A stretch of 17,575 bases of DNA, taken from positions 1 through 17,575 of the forward strand of contig JAXMNT010000087.1 of assembly GCA_034670305.1 (NCBI GenBank), read 5' to 3'. The number at the start of each line of letters is the position of its first letter. The first letter of the stretch is position 1. Positions 148-17,531 of this stretch are shown piece by piece. The notes beneath the pieces are model-generated. The model searched no databases, was not told the DNA's origin, and saw only the letters and a list, made by a program, of their open reading frames with translations. The position numbers were made by a program, and so were the translations under genes. The stretch comes from Deltaproteobacteria bacterium (GTDB taxonomy: Bacteria > Myxococcota_A > Polyangia > Polyangiales > Houyiibacteriaceae).

Positions 148-825
148 ATGGAGCAAGAGCTCCCTCTAGCCATCTCTCGGCTCGCGATGCCGGCGGTTTT
201 CGTCTTCGTCGTTCCGACACTCAGTCTCTTTGCTGCGTCTCGTGCACGGGCCCGCGGCCACAGCCAGCTGCTTTCCGTGGCGGTCGTGGGCGGAATGTCC
301 TGGGGTGTCTTCATTCTCGCGCTGGGGGCGCTGTCGACACTTGGGGAGCATCGGGGCTTGGACGAGGGTCCGACTGAGTTGAGCGGGTTGATGGTGATCT
401 TGCCTTCGGTGGCAGCGGGACTCCTCGGACTTCTCTGGGTTGCGCGCAGGCCCGACTTCCGGGAGCCCGCACCACCAGCAGACCGCTCGCCGTTCTCAGT
501 CCGGGTACGGGTCTGCGCAGCGGTCGCTTGCGCACTGGCATCGGTGGCCTCGACGTTGTGGCTGTACGACGGCCACACCTGGCGGGCCCACCGCCTCTTG
601 CCGGACTCGGCGGAAATTCTTGAGGAGAGCGCGCTCACGGAGCCGTTTCTGTCCGATTACGCCTACCGAATCCGCGCGCGCATGTCGGAGGACGACTTCC
701 ATCATTGGACCGAGCAACTGGGCGTTGAGCCCGGACCGGACGAGGAAGAACGTGGGGACGAGCAGTGTTGGTCGAGCGCACAGTACGAAGATGGGGTGGG
801 CACGTACTCCGCCAACTGTATGTAG
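148..825 (+). CDS. Hypothetical integral membrane protein (about 4 TM helices plus a soluble C-terminal domain)
   Basis: ORF 127..825 has in-frame ATGs at 139 and 148, so the start is uncertain. Four hydrophobic segments ([72 protein letters not shown]) are followed by an acidic soluble tail. Confidence 0.65.
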
Positions 826-858
826 CCGTCGGCTGAGCCTCTGAACCTCTGAATCGAC

Positions 859-996
859 GCCGAAGCCGACGCCGACGCCGACGCCGATCCCGAAGCCGAC
901 GCCGAGGCCGACCCCGACGCCGTAGCCGACGCCGAGGCCGACCCCGATGCCGATGCCGATGCCGATGCCGAAGCCGATGCCGAGGCCGATGCCGAA
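859..996. repeat. Degenerate hexamer tandem array (GCCGAN/CCCGAN)x23, intergenic
   Basis: Period-6 array of GCCGAC/GCCGAT/GCCGAA/GCCGAG units between convergent genes. Confidence 0.93.
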
Positions 997-1020
997 GCCG
1001 CGATGGCCCCGAGCGACTCA

Positions 1021-1043
1021 ACGGGCACGGGCACGGGCACGGG
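1021..1043. repeat. Short (ACGGGC)x3.8 array, reverse complement of the GCCCGT array at 5410
   Basis: Sequence is acgggcacgggcacgggcacggg. Confidence 0.8.
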
Positions 1044-1063
1044 TGACGCACCCCGTGCCTCCT

Positions 1064-1924
1064 CTACCGGTGGGGGCCGGCGGGGGGTGGGGCGTTGAGG
1101 GCTTGGAGGGTGCGGAGGGCGGAGCCGAGTTCGTGGAGTTCGGGAACTCGGTGCCAGGTGAGGAGGAGGCCTTTGCTGCGGGTGGCGTGCGCGGTGTCGG
1201 GGGCGGCGGCTTGGAGTTGTTGGAGGGCTTTGGGGCCGAGCGCGGGGCCGAAGGTGGCGGCGTCGAAGGGTGGGGTGGCGTCGCCTTCGAAGTCGGGGGC
1301 GCAAGGGGCCCAGAATGTCCAGCCGAGGGTGGAGGGGGCGATGGTGACCGATGGGTTGCGGACGCGCAGTCGCAGCCCGCGCGGGCCTCGGTCGATTTTG
1401 GCTTCGCCGTGCATCATCGCGAGTTCCTGCAAGGTCGCGTGGCAGAAGCCGGCGAGCCGGGCGACGAGATCGATGGCGGCGTCGAGCGGCTGTGTGTCCT
1501 TCAGCTCGCGCAGCTCGCAACGCACCACGCCTTCGGCGGCGGAGAGCTTGGAGCGTGGGCCGCAGCTGGCGAAGAGCTGCTCGGCGTGGGCGTCCCAGAG
1601 CCGTTCGAACGCCCACTGCTTCTTGGCCGCCAACTGTTCCACCCGTTGGAAGTCGGGGCCGCCTTCGACGACGTAGCGCGCGCTCACCGCGATGCAGCGG
1701 TGTTTGTGTTTCGGGGCGCCGACCGACTCGACCCGGACCACGACTTCACCGAAGCCGACTTCGTAGGGGGCGTCGGCGTCGTCGCGCGACTGGGCCCTGC
1801 GGTCCCCCACGCGCTGGCAGATGGATCGAGAAGTCGCGAAGCGCGCGTTCTGCGCCTGAGAGATCGCGAGCGAGCCGGCGACCACGGCGAACAACGCCAC
1901 GACGACCCCCACCGCGACGCCCAT
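1064..1924 (-). CDS. Hypothetical protein with N-terminal membrane anchor or signal (286 aa)
   Basis: ATG start 35 bp downstream of the RtcB-like stop; hydrophobic N-terminus [22 protein letters not shown]; protein-like composition compared with the overlapping shadow ORFs. Confidence 0.65.
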
Positions 1925-1959
1925 CTAGCCGCCCGCTTCCAGCGTGCGCGCCGCTCTGT

Positions 1960-3195
1960 TCACGCGTCGCCGGGCATCGGTTTGTCGCGAAGCACGTAGC
2001 GCACGTTTGTCGTCACGACCGCTTCGCCGAGTTCGAGGCGCTCCATGCAGCCGAGCACTTCGTCGCCGCGGTAGGCGTACTTGGCTTCGCGGGGATGCAG
2101 GATCGTCTCGGTGGATCCGTCCGGTCGGCGGATGGTGAACTTGCGGTCGTCCGGGCCGTGTTCGATCACGCCGGTGACCTTCTCGAACTGGGGGTAGAGG
2201 TAGCCGCCGCCGTGGGGGAGCAGGTTCGCGCCAAGGACGCGATCGACCACCCCGTGTTTCTTCGCGCGGTCGAGGAACCCTTCGCGTTCGGCGATGTCTT
2301 CGCGGAAGTTCGCCTTCGGTTTCACCAGGTACACCGGCAGGTCCGCGCTGATGGTCAGCGGGAAGACGGTGCCGTTGTCGACTTCTTCGTCTTCGAAGAC
2401 GTAACAGCCGAGGTGGGCCCGGTTCATCGTCGTCAGCCCCTGGTGGGTCGCGTTGATGACCTCGCGCCAGCCGCCCTGGGACTCGTCGTCGTTCTGTTCC
2501 CCGAAGAGCGCGGTGGCCATCGCGGCGCGGCGCGCGTGGTTCCAGTTCTGGATGCGCATGTAGATCTCATGCCACCACACCGCGTGTTCGCCTTCGAGCA
2601 CATTGAGGGTGCCCCACGGGGTCTCGATGAGGCGGGAGCGCTTCTTCAAGTCTTCGTCGTGGTCGTAGTAGATGCCGCTCCCGAAGGGCGAGCTTCCGCG
2701 GTGTTCGTGGCCGCTCGAGTGCATCACGAAGTAGGCCTTGGCGTCGCCGCCTTCGACGGTCTCGCAGACGTCGAGGAAGTGGTTGCCGTGGTCGAGGTCG
2801 TAGACGACCGGGAGTCCTTCGCACTCGACTTCACCGTCCATCAGCTTTTGTGCGTTGGCCATCAGCTGGTCGCGGTCGGTGACTTCCGGGAGCGCGCCGA
2901 CCAGCATGCCGCAGCCGTTGCTCTTGATGTCGAGCACGACGAAGTCGCCGGTCCACGCGATGCGCCCGCCGTAACCGAACCCTTGAGTCCAGCGTTTGAC
3001 GTTGCGGGTCACGGTGGCGTCGGGCGCACCCACGAACGTTGCGTCCGGTGGCAGCCCCATCTGGCGCTGGGCTTCTTGGATCTTGGCGATGCCGTACGGC
3101 ATGTTGGCCGCGCAGAGCTGTTCGCCCACGTCGCCGACGCCAGCCATGAAACAGTGTTCGCGGGCTCGTTCGAGGAGCGCGTCGCTATCGGTCAT
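1960..3195 (-). CDS. Divergent RtcB-superfamily protein (RNA 3'-phosphate/5'-OH ligase fold), 411 aa
   Basis: RtcB motifs in canonical order: APD59, NGC95GM, GN138H139FLD, VMH159SS, ATH251Q, PH328GGG, E370AKYAY375R. Strong GC3 codon bias. Confidence 0.8.
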   Translation of the reverse strand: MTDSDALLERAREHCFMAGVGDVGEQLCAANMPYGIAKIQEAQRQMGLPPDATFVGAPDATVTRNVKRWTQGFGYGGRIAWTGDFVVLDIKSNGCGMLVGALPEVTDRDQLMANAQKLMDGEVECEGLPVVYDLDHGNHFLDVCETVEGGDAKAYFVMHSSGHEHRGSSPFGSGIYYDHDEDLKKRSRLIETPWGTLNVLEGEHAVWWHEIYMRIQNWNHARRAAMATALFGEQNDDESQGGWREVINATHQGLTTMNRAHLGCYVFEDEEVDNGTVFPLTISADLPVYLVKPKANFREDIAEREGFLDRAKKHGVVDRVLGANLLPHGGGYLYPQFEKVTGVIEHGPDDRKFTIRRPDGSTETILHPREAKYAYRGDEVLGCMERLELGEAVVTTNVRYVLRDKPMPGDA

Positions 3196-3262
3196 ACAGA
3201 AGTCTCTCTTTGGGGTGCTTGGATAGGGGCCGCCAGTCTCGCGAAGCGGTCCGCAGCGGCGA

Positions 3263-4334
3263 CTAGAAAGTCGCCTGAAGGGTCAAAGCTGCGCCGCGTT
3301 CAAGGGGCGCGACGCCAGGCGCCCGCAGGCGGAACCCACGGCTGGCGCTCTCGTGGTCGGCTTGCAGGGCTTCGTCGAAGCTGCGGGCGGACTCGAGGCG
3401 GGCGCTGGCCGAGCCGCCGCCTTCGGCGTCGAGGCGATCGCGGAGTTCCTGGTAGCGGGTCCAGCGCTTCTCGGCGTCGGAGCGGCTCGCGAGTCCGATG
3501 ATGCCGGTGATGAGCGAGATCCCCGAACCGATCAGAATGAGGTAGTCGAACGGGCTGTCGATCGAGAAGTCGTTGGGCGCGAGGTACAGCGGGATGACCA
3601 TCAGCCCGAGCGCGACGTTGATGCCGGACTCGATGAAGCGCGCGATCTTGGTCCGGCGGGAGAGGTACTCGAGCGAGGCTTCGCCGAAGTCCACGCGCGC
3701 TTGCACCGCTTCGAGATCGGTCATCGGCATGTGGGTGTATTCGATGGCGCGGCTCGAGGGGTTCGGCGTGACGAAGAGGCTCACGAGGCCGGTGACCAGG
3801 TTGGCGGTGCCGTAGAGCAGCAAGTAGGTCGCGGTCTCTCGTTCGTCCCACTTGTAGATGCCGATGCCCACGCCGAGGCCGCCGGCCAGGAGCGAGAAGA
3901 CACCATCGAGGATGCGGCTGTTGCCGCGGGCCGAGAGCGCCTGAAGGTCCTGGTCGAGCACCCGCAGGCGCGCGCGAAGTCGCGGCGGAATGCGCGCGAG
4001 GTCTTCGTCGATGCCGGTGTGGCCAGGCGGGGCGGCGTACCGGACCTCCGGATAGCCGGTGCCGGGGGGCGGGGGGATGTCGCCCGTCAGTGCGACGTCC
4101 ACGCCGAGGTCGGCGGCTTCGGTCGAGGTCGCACCCTCCGCGGTGGCGGTTGGCGCGGGTGCGGTGCGGTCGCCTCGCGGCGCGCTCAGCCCAGAGGCGC
4201 CTTCGGTGCTCTGTGCCGAGGCGGGGCTGGCGCATGCGGCGGCCAGGAGCACGGCGCTTCCCACAGACAGCAGGGCAGCCATCCAAGATTGATGCGCACG
4301 CGAGGGACGGACCACGGGGGGAAGGGGCACGGGC

Positions 4335-4345
<11 letters not shown>
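3263..4345 (-). CDS. Hypothetical membrane protein (signal-like N-terminus, about 4 Gly-rich TM helices)
   Basis: Signal-like segment MAALLSVGSAVLLAAACASPASAQ (alternative start 4282), a Pro/Ala/Thr linker, and TM-like segments GVFSLLAGGLGVGIGIY, YLLLYGTANLVTGLVSLFV, GINVALGLMVIPLYL and YLILIGSGISLITGIIGLA. Overlaps the upstream TPR gene by 11 nt. Confidence 0.8.
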
Positions 4346-7480
<3,135 letters not shown>

Positions 7481-7546: not shown

Positions 7547-7927
7547 TCAGCTCTTCTTGAGAAGGTCGCGGATCTCGCGGAGCAATACGACATCCTCGGG
7601 GTCCGGCGCGGGCTCGGGCTCGGGCTCGGGCTCTTCCTTCTTCTTCATCTTGGCCATCATCTTGTTCGCCGGTTTGACCAGGAAGAAGTAGATGACGGCG
7701 GCGGTGAGAAGGAAGTTGACGATGGCGGTCACGACCAGGCCGGCCTGAACCGGTCCGATGTTGATCGCGTCGTCGAAGTTGGGCGTTCCGACGATCGCGC
7801 CGAGTGCGGGATTGATCACGCCTTCGACAAACTTGTCGACGATGGTCTTGAACGCGCCGCCAATGATGACGGCGACCGCCAACTCGATCACGTTTCCACG
7901 GAGAATGAACTCTTTGAAGCCCTTCAT
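7547..7927 (-). CDS. mscL: Large-conductance mechanosensitive channel MscL
   Basis: FKEFILRGNVIELAVAVIIGGAF N-terminal signature, TM2 AIVNFLLTAAVIYFF, C-terminal LLREIRDLLK; AGGAGG RBS upstream. Confidence 0.97.
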   Translation of the reverse strand: MKGFKEFILRGNVIELAVAVIIGGAFKTIVDKFVEGVINPALGAIVGTPNFDDAINIGPVQAGLVVTAIVNFLLTAAVIYFFLVKPANKMMAKMKKKEEPEPEPEPAPDPEDVVLLREIRDLLKKS

Positions 7928-8152: not shown

Positions 8153-8536
8153 TCAGCGCTCTCGGGCGCGAAACGTCATGACCAAACCACGATCGTCGAT
8201 CGTGATCGCCCTGCGCTCCATCAGTGGCTCTTCCTGACAGTCCAGGAGCGACAAGTCGTAGATGCCTGGCTCGAGGTCCCAGGCTCTTCCTTCACCGATG
8301 GCGATGACTTCCGAGGGACCGAGCCGGTCCGGTCCCCGACGCGTCCCGTTCTCGGACAGATGGGTGGGCCACGCGTAGACGAAGCAAACGATGTCTTCGC
8401 TGTGGTTGCGCACCAAGAGCGCGACGCCATCTGCGTCGGGGGTGGTCTGGTTCGCGCCGCTCTGGACCGCAGTTCCGCTCGCGCAGGCAGCGGCAAGACA
8501 GACCACACACGCAGCCCACGACCGGAGCGCGTGCAT
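8153..8536 (-). CDS. Small hypothetical lipoprotein (127 aa)
   Basis: ATG overlaps the carA stop (TGATG). Lipobox VVCLAAA-C, then a beta-rich domain (VRNHSEDIVCFVYAWP...GPDRLG...PGIYDLSLLDC). Confidence 0.75.
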   Translation of the reverse strand: MHALRSWAACVVCLAAACASGTAVQSGANQTTPDADGVALLVRNHSEDIVCFVYAWPTHLSENGTRRGPDRLGPSEVIAIGEGRAWDLEPGIYDLSLLDCQEEPLMERRAITIDDRGLVMTFRARER

Positions 8537-9642
8537 CAAGACATGGCCGAGACGAACTGGTCGAACAGGTAGCGGGAGTCGTGGGGACCTGCCCCGGCTT
8601 CGGGGTGGTACTGGACCCCGAACGCGCGCTGCGAAGGGTCGGCGATGCCCATGCAGGTCCCGTCGTTGAGATGCACGTGGGTGACCTGTGCCGTCGGCGC
8701 CAAAGACTCCGGATCCACCGCGAACCCATGGTTCTGCGTCGTGATCTCGATGCGGCCCGTCTCGAGGTTCTTCACCGGCTGGTTGATGCCGCGGTGACCG
8801 AACTTGAGCTTGAAGGTGCGGGCGCCGAGCGCGAGCGAGAGGATCTGGTGCCCGAGGCAGATCCCGAACATCGGGAACTCTCCGAGCAAGGCGCGGGTCA
8901 GCTCGATCCCGTACTCGACCGGCGCGGGGTCTCCTGGGCCGTTGGAGAGAAACACGCCGTCGGGCTTCAGCGCTCGGACTTCGTCCGCCGTCGTTCGGTT
9001 CGGCACCACCGTGACCCGGCAGCCGGCGTCCACGAGGCACCGGAGGATGTTTCGTTTGGCACCGAAGTCGACCGCGACCACGTGTGGCCCGCTGTCTTGC
9101 CCCGACCGTGGTTCGGCGAGCGCCCACACGCCGGTTCCTTCGGTCCAGGGGTAGGGTTCCTTGGCGCTCACCTCACCGGTGAGGTCTTTGCCGGTCATCG
9201 GCGCCGCGTCCGCCGCCATCTTTCGGAGCGTGTCCACATCGGAGGTGCCCATCGCGGCCATCTGTGCGCCACGGTCGCGGATGGCGCGGGTGAGCGCGCG
9301 GGTGTCCACGCCTTGGATGCCCACCACGCCGTGGGTGCGCAGGTAGTCCTCGAGCGTCGCTTCGCTGCGCCAGCTGCTCGCGATGGGGCTGAGCTCGTGC
9401 ACGACGAACCCAGCCAGCGCCGGTGCGGCCGCCTCCACGTCGTCTGCATTGACGCCGGTGTTGCCCATCATGGGGGCGGTCATCGTGACGAGCTGACCGC
9501 AGTAGGACGGGTCGGTCAGCACTTCCTGATACCCCGTCATGCCGGTCGTGAAGACCGCTTCGCCGATGCTGTCGCCCGGCGCGCCCATCGCTTCGCCGTC
9601 GAAGACGGTGCCGTCGGCCAGAACCAAGTGTGCCTGTGTCAT
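8536..9642 (-). CDS. carA: Carbamoyl-phosphate synthase small (glutaminase) subunit
   Basis: LADGTVF, GEAVFTTGMTGYQEVLTDPSY, LSNGPGDP, FGICLGHQ (catalytic Cys), FGHRGINQPV, QNHGFAV, QYHPEA. ATG at 9642 overlaps the pyrC stop (ATGA). Confidence 0.97.
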   Translation of the reverse strand: MTQAHLVLADGTVFDGEAMGAPGDSIGEAVFTTGMTGYQEVLTDPSYCGQLVTMTAPMMGNTGVNADDVEAAAPALAGFVVHELSPIASSWRSEATLEDYLRTHGVVGIQGVDTRALTRAIRDRGAQMAAMGTSDVDTLRKMAADAAPMTGKDLTGEVSAKEPYPWTEGTGVWALAEPRSGQDSGPHVVAVDFGAKRNILRCLVDAGCRVTVVPNRTTADEVRALKPDGVFLSNGPGDPAPVEYGIELTRALLGEFPMFGICLGHQILSLALGARTFKLKFGHRGINQPVKNLETGRIEITTQNHGFAVDPESLAPTAQVTHVHLNDGTCMGIADPSQRAFGVQYHPEAGAGPHDSRYLFDQFVSAMS

Positions 9643-10922
9643 GTCGTCTCTTCCGGCAGCTCGTGAACGATGCGTCCGTCCACGAGGGTCAGCGTTGCTC
9701 TGCCCCGCACCCGCGCGCCGAGCAGGGGGGTGTTGGCGGCTTTGGAACGAAGCGCGTCCGCGCGCACGGTCCATTCGGCGCCAGGATCGATCACGGTGAG
9801 GTCTCTCGCGCCCGTGAGCGCGGCACTTCGACCCAGAATGTTCGCGGGGCCGGTGGTGAGTGCGGCGATCGTCGTGCCCAGGGGCAGATCGCCCGACGCG
9901 ACCAGCGCGCAGAGAAGGGACACCGCGGTCTCGAGCCCAGCGATGCCCGGAAGCGCCACTTCGAGTTCGCACTCTTTCGCGAGGGCATGGTGGGGCGCGT
10001 GGTCGGTCGCGATGGCGTCGATGGTTCCGTCGCGGACGCCCGCGAGCAGGGCCTGCCGGTCGGATTCCTCGCGGAGCGGCGGCACGACCTTCGCCAAGGT
10101 GTTGAAGCCCTCGAGCAACGCGTCCGTGAACGAGAGGTGGTGCGGCGTCACGTCGGCGGTCACTCGGACGCCGCGGGCTTTGGCTTCGCGCACGACCTCG
10201 ACCGCCCCGCCGCTCGAGAGGTGGGCGACATGCAGATGCGCGCCGCTCATCTCCGCCACCCGCACATCGCGGGCCACCGCCGCGTCCTCGGCTTCTCGGG
10301 GCCAACCGCGCAGCCCCATGCGGATGCTGCGCACCCCTTCATGGACGAACGCACCTCGGACGAGGTCCGGCTCTTCGCAGTGCTGCATGACGACCAGGCC
10401 GAAGGTCGAGGCGTACTCGAGTGCGCGCCGAAGCAGTCCCGCGTCTCGAATGGGCCAGCGGTCGTCGGTGACACCGACCACGCCGGCGGCCTGCAGCTCC
10501 GCCATCTCGGTCAGGGCCACGCCTTTCATGCCGAGCGTGATGCAGCCGAAGGGCAGAAGCCGCGTGCCACCGAGCGCGCGGGCGCGGGCGACGAGCATGT
10601 CGGTGACCGCGCGGGTGTCGTTGGGGGGAAGGGTGCCCGGCATGGCGCACACGGTCGTGTAGCCACCGGCCGCCGCGGCGCGGAGCCCGGACTCGAGGTC
10701 CTCTTTGTGTTCTTCGCCTGGCTCCCGCAGGTGGGTGCGCAGGTCGATGAGTCCGGGGACCACCCAGCAGCCCGTCACGTCGCGGACTTCATGATCGCCC
10801 GCGATGGGTGCAGCGTCGGCTCCGAACGACGCGCCCTCGGCGCCGACGATCACGTCGGCCACTGCGTCGAATCCGGAGGCGGGGTCGAGCACGCGTCCGC
10901 CGCGGAGCAGAAGGTGGCCCAT
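9639..10922 (-). CDS. pyrC: Dihydroorotase-family protein, probably the non-catalytic PyrC' type
   Basis: PGLIDLRTHLREPG, AAAGGYTTVCAMP, HCEE, HVAHLS, DVTPHHL, KVVPPLR, IATDHAPH, PGIAGLET, NTPLLG. The first Zn-ligand His is replaced by Arg. Start is ATG 10922 or GTG 10931. Confidence 0.88.
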   Translation of the reverse strand: MGHLLLRGGRVLDPASGFDAVADVIVGAEGASFGADAAPIAGDHEVRDVTGCWVVPGLIDLRTHLREPGEEHKEDLESGLRAAAAGGYTTVCAMPGTLPPNDTRAVTDMLVARARALGGTRLLPFGCITLGMKGVALTEMAELQAAGVVGVTDDRWPIRDAGLLRRALEYASTFGLVVMQHCEEPDLVRGAFVHEGVRSIRMGLRGWPREAEDAAVARDVRVAEMSGAHLHVAHLSSGGAVEVVREAKARGVRVTADVTPHHLSFTDALLEGFNTLAKVVPPLREESDRQALLAGVRDGTIDAIATDHAPHHALAKECELEVALPGIAGLETAVSLLCALVASGDLPLGTTIAALTTGPANILGRSAALTGARDLTVIDPGAEWTVRADALRSKAANTPLLGARVRGRATLTLVDGRIVHELPEETT

Positions 10923-10931
10923 CGAGACCAC

Positions 10932-11659: not shown

Positions 11660-13363
11660 CTAGCGGCTGTCGGCGGCGGTGACGCGGACGACCTCTTCCA
11701 TCGTCGTCACGCCTTCGGTGACCTTGGTCAGGCCGCTCATGCGGAGGGTCTTCACGTTCTCTCGGATCATCTCGTCTTTGAGTTCCGCCGTCATGCAGCC
11801 CTGAAGGACCATCTCTTTGAGGCGGTCGGTGAACGGCATGACTTCGTAGAGCGCGATGCGGCCCTTGTAGCCGCTGTCGTTGCAGGTCCGGCAGCCGGTG
11901 CCCTTGAACACCCGCACCTTGTCCAGGTTCTCCGCTTTGAACCCGACGTCGATGAGCGCCTGCTGTTCCGGCTGGACCTCGACCCGGCAGTCTTCGCAAA
12001 TCTTTCGCGCGAGGCGCTGGGCGACGACGAGGTTCACGCTGGCGGTGACCAGGAACGGCTCCACGCCCATGTTGAGCAAGCGCGTGACGGTCGAAGGCGC
12101 GTCGTTGGTGTGCAGGGTCGAGAGCACGAGGTGGCCGGTGAGCGCGGCCTTGACCGCGATCTCGGCCGTCTCGAAGTCGCGAATCTCGCCGACCATGATG
12201 ATGTCCGGGTCCTGACGCAAGAACGAGCGCAGCGCGGCGGAGAAGTTCAGCCCGATGTCCTCGTGCATCTGAACCTGGTTGATGCCCGTGAGGTTGAACT
12301 CGACCGGGTTCTCGGCGGTGGAGATGTTGGTCTCGGAGTCGTTGAGCTCCGAGAGCGCCGAGTAGAGCGTCGTCGTCTTGCCCGAACCCGTTGGTCCGGT
12401 GACGAGCACCATGCCGTAGGGCTGGTGGATGTTGAACTGGAAGTCGTCGAGCGCCTTCTGTTCGAACCCGAGCCGGGTCATGTCCAGCTGCAGGTTCGAC
12501 TTGTCGAGAAGCCGGAGGACCATCTTCTCGCCCCACAGCGTGGGCAGGGCGGAGACTCGAAAGTCCATCTCTCGGCCTTTGCCGAGCTTGAGTTTGATGC
12601 GGCCATCCTGGGGCAACCGGCGCTCGGCGATGTCGAGCTGCGACATGATCTTCAAGCGAGACGCGAGCGCGTTCTTCAGCTTGTGCGGCGGGGCCATCTC
12701 CTCGTGGAGCACGCCGTCGATCCGGTACCGGACCCGAAGCGTCTTCTCGTAGGGTTCGACGTGGATGTCGCTCGCGCCCTTCTTGATGGCGTTGAGCAGG
12801 ATCGCGTTGCACAGCCGGATGACCGGCGCGCCTTCGGACGCCCGCTCGAGGTCGAGGAGGTTCATCTCGTCCTCTTCGCTCGCGACCTCGATCTCGTCCT
12901 CGTCGAAGCCCTCCATGATCTCGTCGTACGAGATCTCCGGTGCGGCGTAGTACGTCTCGACGGCGGCTACGATGGCGGCTTCGGAGGCCACGACGGGCTC
13001 GACGTTGTAGCCGGTGAGGAACTTGATGTCGTCGATGGCGTGGAGGTTGCTCGGGTCCGCCATGGCGACGATGAGCGAAGAGCCTGCGCGGGAGACCGGG
13101 ATGATCTTGTGGCGCTGACACACCTCTTGGGTGATCAGCTTCAGGACCTCTTGGTCGATCTCGTACTCGCTCAGGTCGATCGCCTGGACGCGGTACTGCT
13201 GACTGAGGAAGTCGGTGATCTCCTGGTCGGAGATGTAGCCCATCTTCGCGAGCGCATACCCCAGGCTCACGCCGTCTTTGCGCTGGGTGTCTTGGGCGGC
13301 TTTCAGCTGTTCGAGGCTGATTCGCTTGGAGCGAACGAGCAGCTCACCGAGTCGGTTCGACAT
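11660..13363 (-). CDS. pilB: Type IV-A pilus assembly ATPase PilB (567 aa)
   Basis: MSNRLGELLV MshEN-type N-terminus, ASDIHVEPYE, LDIAERRLPQDGR, Walker A GPTGSGKT, LRQDPDIIMVGEIRD, TGHLVLSTLHTND, Zn tetracysteine CEDC...CRTC, GYKGR. GGAG RBS upstream of ATG 13363. Confidence 0.95.
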   Translation of the reverse strand: MSNRLGELLVRSKRISLEQLKAAQDTQRKDGVSLGYALAKMGYISDQEITDFLSQQYRVQAIDLSEYEIDQEVLKLITQEVCQRHKIIPVSRAGSSLIVAMADPSNLHAIDDIKFLTGYNVEPVVASEAAIVAAVETYYAAPEISYDEIMEGFDEDEIEVASEEDEMNLLDLERASEGAPVIRLCNAILLNAIKKGASDIHVEPYEKTLRVRYRIDGVLHEEMAPPHKLKNALASRLKIMSQLDIAERRLPQDGRIKLKLGKGREMDFRVSALPTLWGEKMVLRLLDKSNLQLDMTRLGFEQKALDDFQFNIHQPYGMVLVTGPTGSGKTTTLYSALSELNDSETNISTAENPVEFNLTGINQVQMHEDIGLNFSAALRSFLRQDPDIIMVGEIRDFETAEIAVKAALTGHLVLSTLHTNDAPSTVTRLLNMGVEPFLVTASVNLVVAQRLARKICEDCRVEVQPEQQALIDVGFKAENLDKVRVFKGTGCRTCNDSGYKGRIALYEVMPFTDRLKEMVLQGCMTAELKDEMIRENVKTLRMSGLTKVTEGVTTMEEVVRVTAADSR

Positions 13364-13456
13364 GCATCTCCATGGGGGGTGGGGGCAGAGGGGTGGGGCG
13401 GGACCGGGCCCAGTGTAGGACCTCGCGGGTGTTTGAGGCCAGATCGTTCTCCCTCC

Positions 13457-13482
13457 GGGGCACAGCCCCCAAACCCCCGTCC
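13457..13482 (+). repeat. REP-like dispersed element, copy 1 (GGGGCACAGCCCCCAAACCCCCGTCC)
   Basis: Near-identical to 16055-16079; contains a GGGGC-aca-GCCCC mini-hairpin. Confidence 0.6.
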
Positions 13483-13617
13483 TGGGGAGGCCGCCTCGCT
13501 CCACCGCGCCGGTCGCCCCGTCGCACAAAGACGGCCCAAAACGTTGTGCTCTACCCTCCGCACCCCCGCCCCGGATGTGGCAGTCTCCCATCCGGGTTCC
13601 ACCCGCCGGACGCCACC

Positions 13618-14775
13618 ATGAGCTTCATGCGCAGACTCTTCAGCAGCGCCTACCGCCAAGCCCGCCGGGCCGAAGCGAAGGGGCTGTACCGGGAAGCAGC
13701 CGCGATCTACGCGGAGAACGACCTCCCCGAAGAAGCGGCGAACGCGCTCTTGGTCCACGCGGCGCGCGCCTCGGAGCTCGAGGAGCAGCTGGCGGCGTTG
13801 CGCGACGCGCTGCGCTGGTTGCCGGAAGGCCACGACCGCCGAATCGAGGTGGAAGGGCGGATCGGCACCTCGATCCTCGAAGAGGCACAACGCCGGGGCG
13901 TGCACACTGCCGAAGAAAAGCGCCGGCTCGAAGAAGCCGCCCAGCGGCTCGAGACCGCGGAGCTGCACTCGAAGGCAGCGACGGCGTACGAGATGCTCGA
14001 TCGCACCGACGATGTGGCCCGCTGCCTTCAGCTCGCGGGCGACGTAGAGCGCCTCGAGGCGCTGCTCGAAGAGACCAGCGGGGAGGCCCGCAAGGAGCGG
14101 GCGCTTCGGCGCTTCCTCTCCGACTACGAGATGGCGATGGCGGTGGGCCATCGGCTCGAAGCGCGGAAGGCGCTCGAACAGGCGCTGGAGGTCTCTCCCG
14201 AAGAACGCACGGTCGCGGATCTGCTGCGCCGTCTCGAGGCGCGGTTCATCCCCGGCCGGCGGCTGACGCTTCGGTTCGATGGCCGCGAGGTCTCGTTCGT
14301 CGGTCGCACGTCGCTGGTGCTGGGGCGAGACGCCGATGTGGTGGTGCGCGGCGCGAGCGTGTCCCGTCGCCACACCGAGATTCTGCGGGTCGGATCCAAG
14401 ATCGTCGTGCGTGACCTCGAGAGCCGAAACGGGACCCTGGTGCGCGGCGTCCCGATCGCGGGCGAGCTCGAAGTGGACGGCGTGGTGGACGTAGGCCTCG
14501 GCGACGACGTCACGGTGCGGGTCACCCCGATCGACGGCGGGCTCCGGCTTCGGGTGCTGGAAGGGCTGGACCGCGACCGCGTCGCGCTGGCTGGCGAAGG
14601 CGCGCTTCGGATCGATGGTCTGAGCGCGACCATCGCCTTCGAGAAAGGCCATCCGACCCTCACCCCGGACGAAGGCAGCCGCACCCGGCTCGATCGACAG
14701 AACGTGGCGGCGCGCATCGTTCTGCTGCTCGGCGACGCGATCGAGGTCGACGGGGTGGCGGTCGAGGTCCTCTGA
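13618..14775 (+). CDS. FHA-domain protein with N-terminal helical (TPR/SNAP-like) repeats (385 aa)
   Basis: FHA motifs LVLGRD, SVSRRH and DLESRNGT; all-alpha N-terminal half; ATG at 13618; stop overlaps the kinase start (TGATG). Confidence 0.88.
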   Translation: MSFMRRLFSSAYRQARRAEAKGLYREAAAIYAENDLPEEAANALLVHAARASELEEQLAALRDALRWLPEGHDRRIEVEGRIGTSILEEAQRRGVHTAEEKRRLEEAAQRLETAELHSKAATAYEMLDRTDDVARCLQLAGDVERLEALLEETSGEARKERALRRFLSDYEMAMAVGHRLEARKALEQALEVSPEERTVADLLRRLEARFIPGRRLTLRFDGREVSFVGRTSLVLGRDADVVVRGASVSRRHTEILRVGSKIVVRDLESRNGTLVRGVPIAGELEVDGVVDVGLGDDVTVRVTPIDGGLRLRVLEGLDRDRVALAGEGALRIDGLSATIAFEKGHPTLTPDEGSRTRLDRQNVAARIVLLLGDAIEVDGVAVEVL

Positions 14776-16049
14776 TGTGGAAGCGCATCAAAGGCTTCTT
14801 CGGTGGCAAAGAGGAGGACGAGACGCCGGTCGAGGTGGTCGACGAGAAGCCGAAACCCCCGGTTCCCCCCGCGGTGGAATCGGACGTTCCAAAGACGATC
14901 CCCGAGCAGCTGGAAGCGCTCGCGACCGGCACCCGGCCGCCCGACGCCAGCCACGCGGCGCAGCTCTTCGACACGTTGGTCCGGGACGGTCGGGCGGCGC
15001 GCGCACTCGACCTGGCGCGCAAGGTGCTCGCCCGGTTTCCGCACCTGACCCCGCTCGCGCTGCGGGTGGCGGAGGTGCACTCCTCGCGGGGCGACGACGA
15101 CGCGGCCTGGAAAGCGCTCGAGCCGATGGTGACGGAGCCGGACGCGCCCCTCTCGGCGATGGTCCTCGCGGCCGAGATCGCGGAGCGGCGCGGACGGGTG
15201 CAGGAAGCCCTCGCGCTCTACGAACGCGTGCTCGGCCGCGATCTCGACTTTCCGCAGGCCCGCGAACGGGTGGAGCGGCTGCGCGATTCGGGTCCGACCC
15301 AAGACCTCGCCGGCGCGACCTTGGCCGGGGACGGTGCGCTGGCGCGCGGTCGCTACCGGGTCGAACGGGAGCTCGGCCGTGGTGGTGCCGGCACCGTCTT
15401 CGCGGCGCAGGATCTCCGGACCGCGCGCCGCGTCGCGCTCAAGGTCTACCACCGTCGCGGGCGCGGCGAACTCGAGCGGCTTCGGATCGAAGCGCGCACC
15501 CCGGCGGCGATCGAACACCCCGGTGTGGTGCGGGTGTTCGACTTGGATCCAGCGCTCGGATCCATCGCGATGGAGTGGGTCCAGGGCGGGTCGGTGCGGG
15601 CCGAACTCTCCCGGGGCAAGATCTCCAAAGCCCGCATCCATCGGTGGGTGATGACGATGCTGGAGGCGATGGAGTTCGTGCACCGCTCCGGCTGGGTGCA
15701 CCGGGATCTCAAACCGTCGAACTTCCTGCTGCGGAGCGACGACCGGGTGGTGCTCACCGACTTCGGACTGGCGACCCCGACCGGCGAGGTGCCGCTCGCC
15801 AAAGGCGGGGTGGGCGAAGGCACGCTCCAGTACATGCCGCCCGAGCAGCGCGCCAACGACCCCGCGCAGCCCAGCGCCGACGTGTACGCGTTCGGCAAGA
15901 GCTTCGATGAACTGATGCGCGCCGCCTCGGATCTCGACCCCGAGACCAAGGACGCCTGGACCGAGTGGACCCAGCAGTGTCTGCACCCCGACCCGCAGCG
16001 CCGCCCCGACGTACCCACCCTCCGGGCCGGCCTGACGCCCCCAGAATAA
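14775..16049 (+). CDS. Hanks-type Ser/Thr protein kinase with N-terminal TPR-like region
   Basis: LGRGGAGTVF, VALK, alphaC Glu (RIEAR), HRDLKPSN, DFG, GTLQYMPPE, ADVYAFG, PQRRP. No TM segment. Confidence 0.94.
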   Translation: MWKRIKGFFGGKEEDETPVEVVDEKPKPPVPPAVESDVPKTIPEQLEALATGTRPPDASHAAQLFDTLVRDGRAARALDLARKVLARFPHLTPLALRVAEVHSSRGDDDAAWKALEPMVTEPDAPLSAMVLAAEIAERRGRVQEALALYERVLGRDLDFPQARERVERLRDSGPTQDLAGATLAGDGALARGRYRVERELGRGGAGTVFAAQDLRTARRVALKVYHRRGRGELERLRIEARTPAAIEHPGVVRVFDLDPALGSIAMEWVQGGSVRAELSRGKISKARIHRWVMTMLEAMEFVHRSGWVHRDLKPSNFLLRSDDRVVLTDFGLATPTGEVPLAKGGVGEGTLQYMPPEQRANDPAQPSADVYAFGKSFDELMRAASDLDPETKDAWTEWTQQCLHPDPQRRPDVPTLRAGLTPPE

Positions 16050-17336: not shown

Positions 17337-17357
17337 CGCTCCGCAGGAGCCGCAGAT

Positions 17358-17453
17358 CAGACGCAGCGTCCGCACCAGACGCAGCGTCCGCACCGGACAC
17401 AGCGTCAGACACAGCGTCAGACACAGCGTCAGACACAGCGTCAGCGTCAGCAC
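17358..17453. repeat. Period-6 array of 16 units with higher-order 18-mer and 12-mer structure (CAGACG-CAGCGT-CCGCAC; CAGACA-CAGCGT)
   Basis: Read directly; intergenic, after the lipoprotein stop. Confidence 0.9.
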
Positions 17454-17455
17454 TA

Positions 17456-17498
17456 GCAGGTTGCTGAAGAACGCCCGCAGGGCGTTCTCGCAGCCTGC
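17456..17498. other. Long imperfect palindrome (bidirectional terminator, REP or MITE-like)
   Basis: GCAGGTTGC-tga-AGAACGCCC-gca-GGGCGTTCT-c-GCAGCCTGC, between convergent genes. Confidence 0.65.
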
Positions 17499-17501
17499 CC
17501 C

Positions 17502-17531
17502 TTGCCCCTGCCCTTGCCTTTGCCCTTGCCC
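17502..17531. repeat. Short (TTGCCC)x5 array
   Basis: ttgccc ctgccc ttgcct ttgccc ttgccc; same unit family as 5410-5523. Confidence 0.8.

Follow-up and report, generated by a model that had tools for sequence, protein, structure and literature searches.

A deep, separate branch of the RtcB superfamily with a retained catalytic core and replaced substrate contacts

Introduction

The stretch of DNA analysed here (hereafter the window) spans 17,575 nucleotides of contig JAXMNT010000087.1, from a deltaproteobacterial assembly (GCA_034670305.1) placed in the Polyangiales. On its minus strand, at 1960..3195, it carries a gene for a 411-amino-acid (aa) protein of an unannotated family, and our comparisons place this family within the RtcB superfamily, as a deep branch of its own. 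The RtcB scaffold and its catalytic core are known; what is new is a family that lies outside the defined RtcB family and whose substrate contacts are rewired. These proteins probably carry out RtcB-related chemistry on a substrate other than the canonical one. The best explanation, which we hold with moderate confidence, is that they are Mn-dependent histidine-nucleotidyl transferases with a non-canonical acceptor.

To our knowledge, all characterised RtcB-fold proteins are nucleic acid end-joining or end-capping enzymes that act via a guanylyl-histidine. The family described here is a second branch of a fold that has had one activity so far, and it is a candidate for a new reaction on the RtcB scaffold because the residues of the chemistry are kept, those that bind the nucleic acid strands are swapped, and its genomic neighbours encode transporters, phosphohydrolases and ligases. 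Its distribution is also unusual, taking in Polyangia-type Myxococcota together with Asgard archaea, all of them from metagenome-assembled genomes (MAGs).

The predicted structure matches RtcB

The open reading frame (ORF) is intact, running on the minus strand from an ATG at 3195 to a TGA at 1962-1960, and its start agrees with the start positions of aligned homologues. A preliminary description of this DNA had listed a series of RtcB-like motifs with no mention of strand, and every position in that list is correct for the minus-strand translation, which shows P58-D59, S92-N93-G94-C95, G137-N138-H139-F140, H159-S-S-G-H-E164, H251-Q252, A260-H-L-G-C-Y265, P327-H328-G-G-G-Y332 and E370-x4-Y375-R376.

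An AlphaFold2 model built on a 44-sequence alignment (mean pLDDT 95.3, pTM 0.93) predicts that the protein has the RtcB fold. A structural match to RtcB had been named beforehand as the test of this assignment, and significant Foldseek matches were to RtcB only, both in the PDB and in the viral library BFVD. There were 16 PDB matches at E <= 1e-3, and every one listed is an RtcB; the best were human RTCB (8odp_A, 2e-8) and the Pyrococcus horikoshii RtcB-GMP/Mn complex (4dwq_A, 2.3e-8), and the Thermus thermophilus protein (2epg_A, E 9e-6) was also among them. The first PDB match to anything else came at 1.1e-2. In BFVD, only two matches reach E <= 1e-3, both of them phage 3'-phosphate/5'-hydroxy nucleic acid ligases, i.e. 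RtcB. Of the 30 clusters nearest to it in the ESM Atlas, 25 belong to the set with PF01139, the Pfam RtcB family.

Profile-profile comparison gave the same result. A family profile of 59 members (down to 22% identity) was compared by hhalign with 26 E. coli-type RtcB sequences, and the two aligned with a probability of 79% and an E value of 1.6e-5 over 215 columns, residues 133-403 of the window protein facing E. coli 162-407. Within this region the motifs are paired as had been proposed, apart from a one-residue offset at H251. The N-terminal 130 residues have no confident alignment to RtcB. A permissive hhalign run over the N-terminal third was judged untrustworthy, as it paired the RtcB P-D motif with D51 and not with the invariant D59.

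Sequence models do not recognise the family

The link to RtcB is visible only by profile-profile and fold comparison. The window protein matched no Pfam family even at E <= 1, RtcB PF01139 included, nor any NCBIfam model at E <= 0.1, nor any PADLOC model. Searches of PDB chains with the protein itself (phmmer) and with a 44-sequence profile (hmmsearch) returned chance-level matches only (E >= 0.68), none of them an RtcB. Across the family, the Pfam RtcB model gave sub-threshold matches in 6 of 59 members (best E 0.0071), and each other Pfam family was matched by at most one member. Two of the RtcB scores, 14.3 and 14.7 bits, fall under the curated PF01139 gathering threshold of 27 bits, by which the window protein, having no match at all, lies outside that family.

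The reverse searches behaved similarly. With E. coli RtcB as a phmmer query against 4,616 ORFs (the window plus 71 loci encoding family members, designated L001 onwards), only two family members were retrieved, at E 0.002, and an RtcB hidden Markov model (HMM) run against the ORFs of the loci found three family ORFs only, at E ~0.03. There is, in short, an annotation gap, in that none of the sequence resources tried (Pfam, NCBIfam, PADLOC, PDB) recognises the family. The earlier proposal of a separate RtcB clade is borne out by the lack of any PF01139, NCBIfam or PDB sequence match, which places the protein outside characterised RtcB. A literature search found no description of the family; its coverage of comparative RtcB papers was incomplete, so an earlier mention is possible.

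The catalytic core is retained

In P. horikoshii RtcB, Mn1 is bound by Cys98, His234 and His329 (E. coli C78, H185 and H281) and Mn2 by Asp95, Cys98 and His203 (E. coli D75, C78 and H168); His404 (E. coli H337) accepts GMP, and Asn202 (E. coli N167) contacts the 5'-OH and the GMP phosphate (PMC8051266). The preliminary description had assigned the bridging role to D95, which needs correcting, as it is Cys98 that bridges both metals in the P. horikoshii enzyme (PMC8051266). Conservation of the corresponding residues was counted in the 59 diverse homologues and in 69 genome-encoded copies, and counts are given below in that order. All codons lie on the minus strand.

The predicted nucleotidyl-accepting residue is H328 (codon 2212..2214, in P-H-G-G-G-Y), which hhalign pairs with the nucleophile E. 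coli H337. It is found in 59/59 homologues and in 68/69 genome copies, the last of which has a gap, and the P-H-G-G-G motif formed by H328 and the glycines that follow is kept in 58-59/59. The predicted metal-bridging C95 (2911..2913, in N-G-C-G-M) was placed by permissive hhalign, which sets C95-G-M against E. coli C78-G-M, and is present in 55/59 and 69/69. Residues N138-H139-F140 (2776..2784) align by hhalign with E. coli N167-H168-F169, which include the Asn that contacts GMP and the 5'-OH and the His ligand of Mn2; they are conserved in 58, 59 and 58 of the 59 homologues, and each in all 69 copies. H159 (2719..2721), paired by hhalign with the Mn1 ligand H185, is invariant in both sets (59/59, 69/69).

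The third Mn1 ligand is less precisely placed. H251 (2443..2445), conserved in 59/59 and 69/69, is the probable equivalent of E. coli H281; its register is uncertain by one residue because hhalign sets it opposite H280 and not opposite the Mn1 ligand itself. With that one-residue offset at H251, the full Mn1 ligand set has aligned counterparts in C95, H159 and H251. D59, in a P-D motif (3019..3021), is likewise invariant (59/59, 69/69), and its pairing with RtcB is by spacing and conservation only. Towards the C-terminus, Y375-R376 (2068..2073) align by hhalign with E. coli Y380-K381; position 375 is Tyr in 51/59 homologues and Phe in 6 more, and R376 is present in 59/59. N93, E164 and Q252 are each found in 69/69 genome copies. 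The residues listed earlier for the guanylylation and metal core are kept, with D59, C95, N138-H139-F140, H159, H251 and H328 each present in 68-69 of the 69 genome copies.

Strand contacts are replaced, with differences at metal and guanine positions

The motifs earlier described as altered (SNGC, HSSGHE, HQ, AHLGCY, HGGGY and AYR) are all read in the translation, and the loop that is P-G-S-M-G in RtcB is replaced, being P-L-T-(L/I)-S in the family. In RtcB this loop packs on guanosine. The substitutions are themselves conserved across the 59 homologues and 69 genome copies, which speaks against the decay that would have been suspected had they varied.

At the metal site, the column of the Mn2 Asp, three residues before the Cys, holds Ser or Pro, with H139 and C95 present. 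A substitute for this Asp may be offered by N93 (53/59; 69/69 in genomes) or by an acidic residue at position 89 (D/E in 47/59).

Of the residues that hold the nucleic acid, the E. coli Arg of H-G-A-G-R, R341, aligns with Y332, which is Tyr in 52/59. R341 reportedly helps to bind the 3'-phosphate strand (Maughan & Shuman in 2016 are said to have described this). On the 5'-OH strand, the phosphates are held by P. horikoshii Arg238, which is R189 in E. coli (PMC8051266). The family has mostly replaced this Arg: R189 aligns with H163, in a variable column (H14/P12/S12/R5 of 59 homologues; H38/P20/R1 of 69 genome copies). In human RTCB, guanine is contacted by E230, S409 and K504 (PMC8668186). The E230 column is D142 in the window protein and D23/N14/E11 in the 59 homologues (D/N/E in 48/59), the S409 column is V288 (A26/V11/I8/S8), and the K504 column (E. 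coli K407) is R403 (K31/R13).

As aligned, the two strand-binding arginines, the Asp ligand of Mn2 and the PGSMG loop differ consistently from canonical RtcB. In addition, the family has invariant residues of its own, namely D22, G76, E164, G195 and R223.

A sizeable family in bacteria and archaea

A word-indexed search found 483 homologues of similar length at E <= 1e-3; among the 120 listed, none has a Pfam domain, and the names, where given, are 'hypothetical protein'. An exhaustive search of cluster representatives at 50% identity found 226 clusters at E <= 1e-3, 66 of them at E <= 1e-30. This is a real and sizeable protein family, conserved across bacteria and archaea.

The 71 loci come from a scan of one genome per species. 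Their bacterial hosts are Polyangia-type Myxococcota, WOR-3/Hydrothermus, one member of the Anaerolineaceae and one of the Armatimonadetes, and their archaeal hosts are Thor-, Hermod-, Hod- and Promethearchaeota, Hadarchaeota and Hydrothermarchaeales. The scan was keyed on two conserved peptides, so the true host range may be wider. All records are titled as MAGs and none of the 71 scanned loci comes from a cultured host, so that study would likely go through heterologous expression.

For 69 full-length copies a quick maximum-likelihood tree was computed, leaving out two partial ORFs of <330 aa and one locus (L049) that did not cluster. It resolves 47 rows as a Myxococcota clade (support 97) and 14 as an Asgard clade (support 94), and the other 8 rows form a deep mixed group. 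The window copy is nested in the Polyangiales beside that of L001, to which it has 75% identity.

The cluster search also returned one protein of 743 aa (P0155) in which an N-terminal phosphotransferase of the APH/choline-kinase type (Pfam E 3e-20) is fused to the RtcB-fold domain (residues 340-715). It is the single representative with such a kinase fusion; a search with the family profile found no further fused forms at 733-2090 aa, which is weak evidence.

Conserved gene neighbours differ between lineages

In the Myxococcota, 20 of the 46 evaluable loci encode a multi-pass membrane protein of 410-560 aa directly downstream of the RtcB-fold gene and in the same orientation. In 13 more it lies elsewhere within 10 kb, and it is absent in 13, the window included. 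This protein (L035:7203-8654 and equivalents in 33 Myxococcota loci) has no Pfam or NCBIfam match. Its AlphaFold2 model (pLDDT 91.0) has the MFS fold. NTT-type ATP/ADP translocators make up five of the six best PDB matches to this model, led by AtNTT1 (9j3m_A, E 1.1e-9, template modelling (TM) score 0.68); other MFS transporters listed scored 0.49-0.59.

Among the archaea, 15 of the 19 loci have a gene for an HD phosphohydrolase in the same orientation (representative L059:9263-9925). In Asgard archaea it is upstream; the distance on that side is <=239 nucleotides in 13 loci and 1.8 kb in one, and in the Hydrothermarchaeales locus it is 10 nucleotides downstream. The archaeal HD protein is nearest to YedJ/YpgQ-type proteins. 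The Hydrothermarchaeales locus also has a SLOG/LOG-like protein nearby, and one Hodarchaeota locus a divergent GalT-like HIT protein. Both HD and HIT proteins act on nucleotides, as hydrolases or transferases.

Two further lineages have arrangements of their own. All three WOR-3/Hydrothermus loci (L052:88-5865, L071:8608-14573 and L045:8994-14656) are tight operons in which a lysine-2,3-aminomutase-like (KamA-like) radical-SAM enzyme is followed by the RtcB-fold gene, two ATP-grasp proteins resembling D-Ala-D-Ala ligase (Ddl), PurE and then PurC. The three Hadarchaeota loci, one of them partial, have the order AstE/AspA-type deacylase, weakly matching ATP-grasp protein, zinc-ribbon membrane protein, RtcB-fold gene and xylose-isomerase-like TIM barrel. 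A 444-aa neighbour in Hadarchaeota was considered as a possible counterpart of the Myxococcota transporter, which it resembles in length, and proved unrelated (BLASTP E 7.5).

No gene of canonical RNA repair accompanies the family in the regions covered. E. coli RtcA and RtcR as phmmer queries (E <= 0.01) had 0 matches among the 4,616 ORFs, and an RtcB HMM found no canonical rtcB within 10 kb of family loci. Archease, PrfH and cyclase were absent from the Pfam annotation of the window ORFs and 74 neighbour ORFs, which is the part of the ORF set that this search covered. The preliminary description had noted the lack of all such partners near the gene; this stands for rtcA and rtcR, in the window and all 71 loci, and for archease and prfH it stands as far as the Pfam-annotated ORFs.

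Proposed function and alternatives

The fold, homology, residue conservation and gene context are observed here; from them we infer that the protein binds metal and nucleotidylates itself, and what kind of acceptor it uses. The protein would bind Mn2+ (or a similar divalent metal) and a nucleoside triphosphate (NTP), and H328 would attack the NTP to give a covalent adduct with the nucleoside monophosphate (H328-NMP) with release of pyrophosphate; these steps are predicted because the RtcB fold, the C95/H139/H159/H251 cluster and H328 are kept. That the Cys/His cluster and the histidine in P-H-G-G-G are completely conserved argues for an active enzyme, and metal-dependent histidine attack on an NTP, the first step of RtcB, is most likely retained. 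The NMP would then be passed to a phosphate group on an acceptor. This acceptor is probably not a pair of broken RNA ends, because the strand-holding residues are replaced and the neighbours are not RNA-repair genes, and our leading guess is that it is a nucleotide or another phosphorylated small molecule.

The genomic context, with its nucleotide-transporter-like, HD, ATP-grasp and kinase partners, leans towards the non-standard substrate that had earlier been guessed at, and the fusion to a kinase would suit a role in activating a phosphomonoester. A more specific proposal, which we put forward as tentative, is that the RtcB scaffold here carries a histidine-nucleotidyl transferase of a new kind, acting on free nucleotides or phosphorylated small molecules instead of polynucleotide ends. 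The NMP might be placed on a nucleotide 5'-phosphate to give a dinucleoside polyphosphate, or a phosphoester made by a kinase might be activated as its NDP-derivative. The product or substrate would be moved in Myxococcota by the adjacent NTT-like transporter and turned over in Asgard archaea by the adjacent HD hydrolase.

Several observations weigh against a nucleotidyl transferase with an unusual acceptor. The TM scores to RtcB are only 0.44-0.51 (about 0.48 for the best match), with identities of 10-13% in the PDB matches, and large parts of the structure therefore differ from RtcB. The absence of the Mn2 Asp in register means that the second metal may have been lost, which could alter or abolish NTP use. 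The retention of N138, of the Tyr aligned with E. coli Y380 and of a C-terminal Lys/Arg in the column of the guanine-contacting lysine (44/59) is a set of canonical features that would also be compatible with ordinary GTP-dependent ligation. As for the context, the conserved neighbours vary by lineage, and the transporter, the HD protein and the ATP-grasp proteins are all found outside the window locus; moreover, the nine transporter members tried had no match to Pfam TLC.

Under the main alternative, the protein would be a conventional ligase of 3'-phosphate and 5'-OH ends in RNA (or DNA), or an end-capping enzyme, that has drifted past the reach of RtcB models and still acts on broken RNA in the manner of RtcB. 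Such an enzyme would be expected to have the RtcB fold and the full core of Cys, His ligands and His nucleophile, as the family does, together with the counterpart of the Asn touching both 5'-OH and GMP phosphate (PMC8051266), here N138 in 58/59, and the basic residue aligned with E. coli K407 in 44/59. Myxococcus RtcB paralogues are also reported to differ from one another in their ligation and capping activities (PMC10630183). Against this, both the Arg of the 5'-OH strand (E. coli R189) and the Arg of HGAGR are replaced, as is the guanosine-packing PGSMG loop; rtcA and rtcR occur in 0/72 loci; the window has no archease or prfH (by Pfam on its ORFs) and no tRNA or Rfam RNA; and the genes that recur beside it encode a transporter, an HD hydrolase and ATP-grasp ligases. 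Taking these points together, we consider a drifted ligase or capping enzyme rather unlikely.

Less probable again is plain hydrolysis: a metal-dependent hydrolase or phosphoesterase would work at the RtcB metal site and form no nucleotidyl-histidine, for example as a phosphodiesterase for cyclic phosphates or nucleotides. RtcB does hydrolyse 2',3'-cyclic phosphate at this same site (PMC8051266), the metal facing the GTP gamma-phosphate lacks its Asp ligand in register, and the archaeal HD phosphohydrolase partner suggests nucleotide breakdown. A non-nucleophilic H328 would, however, be hard to reconcile with P-H-G-G-G in 58-59/59, and so we think a hydrolase decidedly improbable. A decayed or non-catalytic relic of RtcB, which the alteration of several near-invariant RtcB motifs might suggest, can be set aside as highly improbable, given that bacterial and archaeal members alike (59 homologues, 69 genome copies) conserve the altered positions, that the ORF is intact, and that the family comprises 226 clusters at 50% identity.

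Comparison with known RtcB systems

The family shares with RtcB ligase (PF01139; 4dwq, 8odp and the E. coli enzyme) the same fold and a similar length (411 aa against 408 aa in E. coli), as well as an aligned Cys and three His, a nucleophilic His in P/S-H-G-x-G, the N-H-F motif, the Tyr of A-Y-K/R and a C-terminal basic residue. It differs in having no Asp three residues before the Cys, in the replacement of R189 by His in a variable column and of R341 by Tyr, in its own invariant residues and in its genomic partners.

In the same phylum, RtcB1-3 of Myxococcus xanthus reportedly provide an example of shifting acceptor specificity, RtcB3 being reported as a 5'-phosphate capping enzyme. Those proteins are described as RtcB enzymes and are by that description set apart from the present family, which the RtcB model does not recognise. 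With the RtcBA-RtcR, RtcB2-PrfH and RtcB-archease modules the family has only the fold of the catalytic protein in common, the partner genes of these modules not being found in the window or in the ORFs examined of related loci.

Other features of the window

Over the kilobase 2001-3000, within the RtcB-fold gene, G+C is 0.648 compared with 0.708 and 0.673 in the flanking kilobases, in a window of about 68% G+C; this dip is too small to signal transfer. A promoter scan of 800-6000 found no promoter-like site, and the sole terminator-like site was on the plus strand.

The RtcB-fold gene lies between two co-directional reading frames. Upstream by 67 nucleotides, at 3263..4345 on the minus strand, is a gene whose 360-aa product combines a signal peptide, a Pro-rich linker and several membrane helices. 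This product clusters only with ORFs of the six closest loci, L001-L006, giving seven loci with the window; its gene adjoins the RtcB-fold gene in L001-L003 and the window and lies 1.7-2.8 kb away in L004-L006. It has no Pfam match, and the label SLATT was rejected for it, the one match (E 0.014) having 15 bits against a cutoff of 41. On the other side, 35 nucleotides after the stop codon, is a 286-aa ORF of doubtful status (1064..1924, minus strand), which has no Pfam or NCBIfam match and no relative in any of the 71 loci.

Further upstream, Pfam identified among the window ORFs a TPR protein (4335-5777), followed on the minus strand by an inosine-uridine-type nucleoside hydrolase (5789-6862), 2.6 kb ahead of the RtcB-fold gene, an MscL mechanosensitive channel (7547-7927), carA for the carbamoyl-phosphate synthase small chain (8536-9642), a dihydroorotase-like amidohydrolase (9639-10931) and a PilB-type T2SSE ATPase (11660-13591). 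The carA and dihydroorotase-like genes overlap by 4 nucleotides and form an ordinary pyrimidine-synthesis pair. An FHA-domain protein (13372-14775) and a TPR-containing Ser/Thr protein kinase (14775-16049) are encoded on the plus strand, and the coincidence of the end of the first gene with the start of the second suggests a coupled signalling pair; the PilB-type ATPase gene is their neighbour. No tRNA or Rfam family was found in the window.

The window also has hexanucleotide tandem arrays at 1-127, 855-1000, 5405-5521, 5524-5703, 17356-17450 and 17494-17531, located at gene ends or between genes. These contain up to 29 copies with 82-100% matches, and translate in any frame into dipeptide repeats such as GS, AS, PM, RA and PC.

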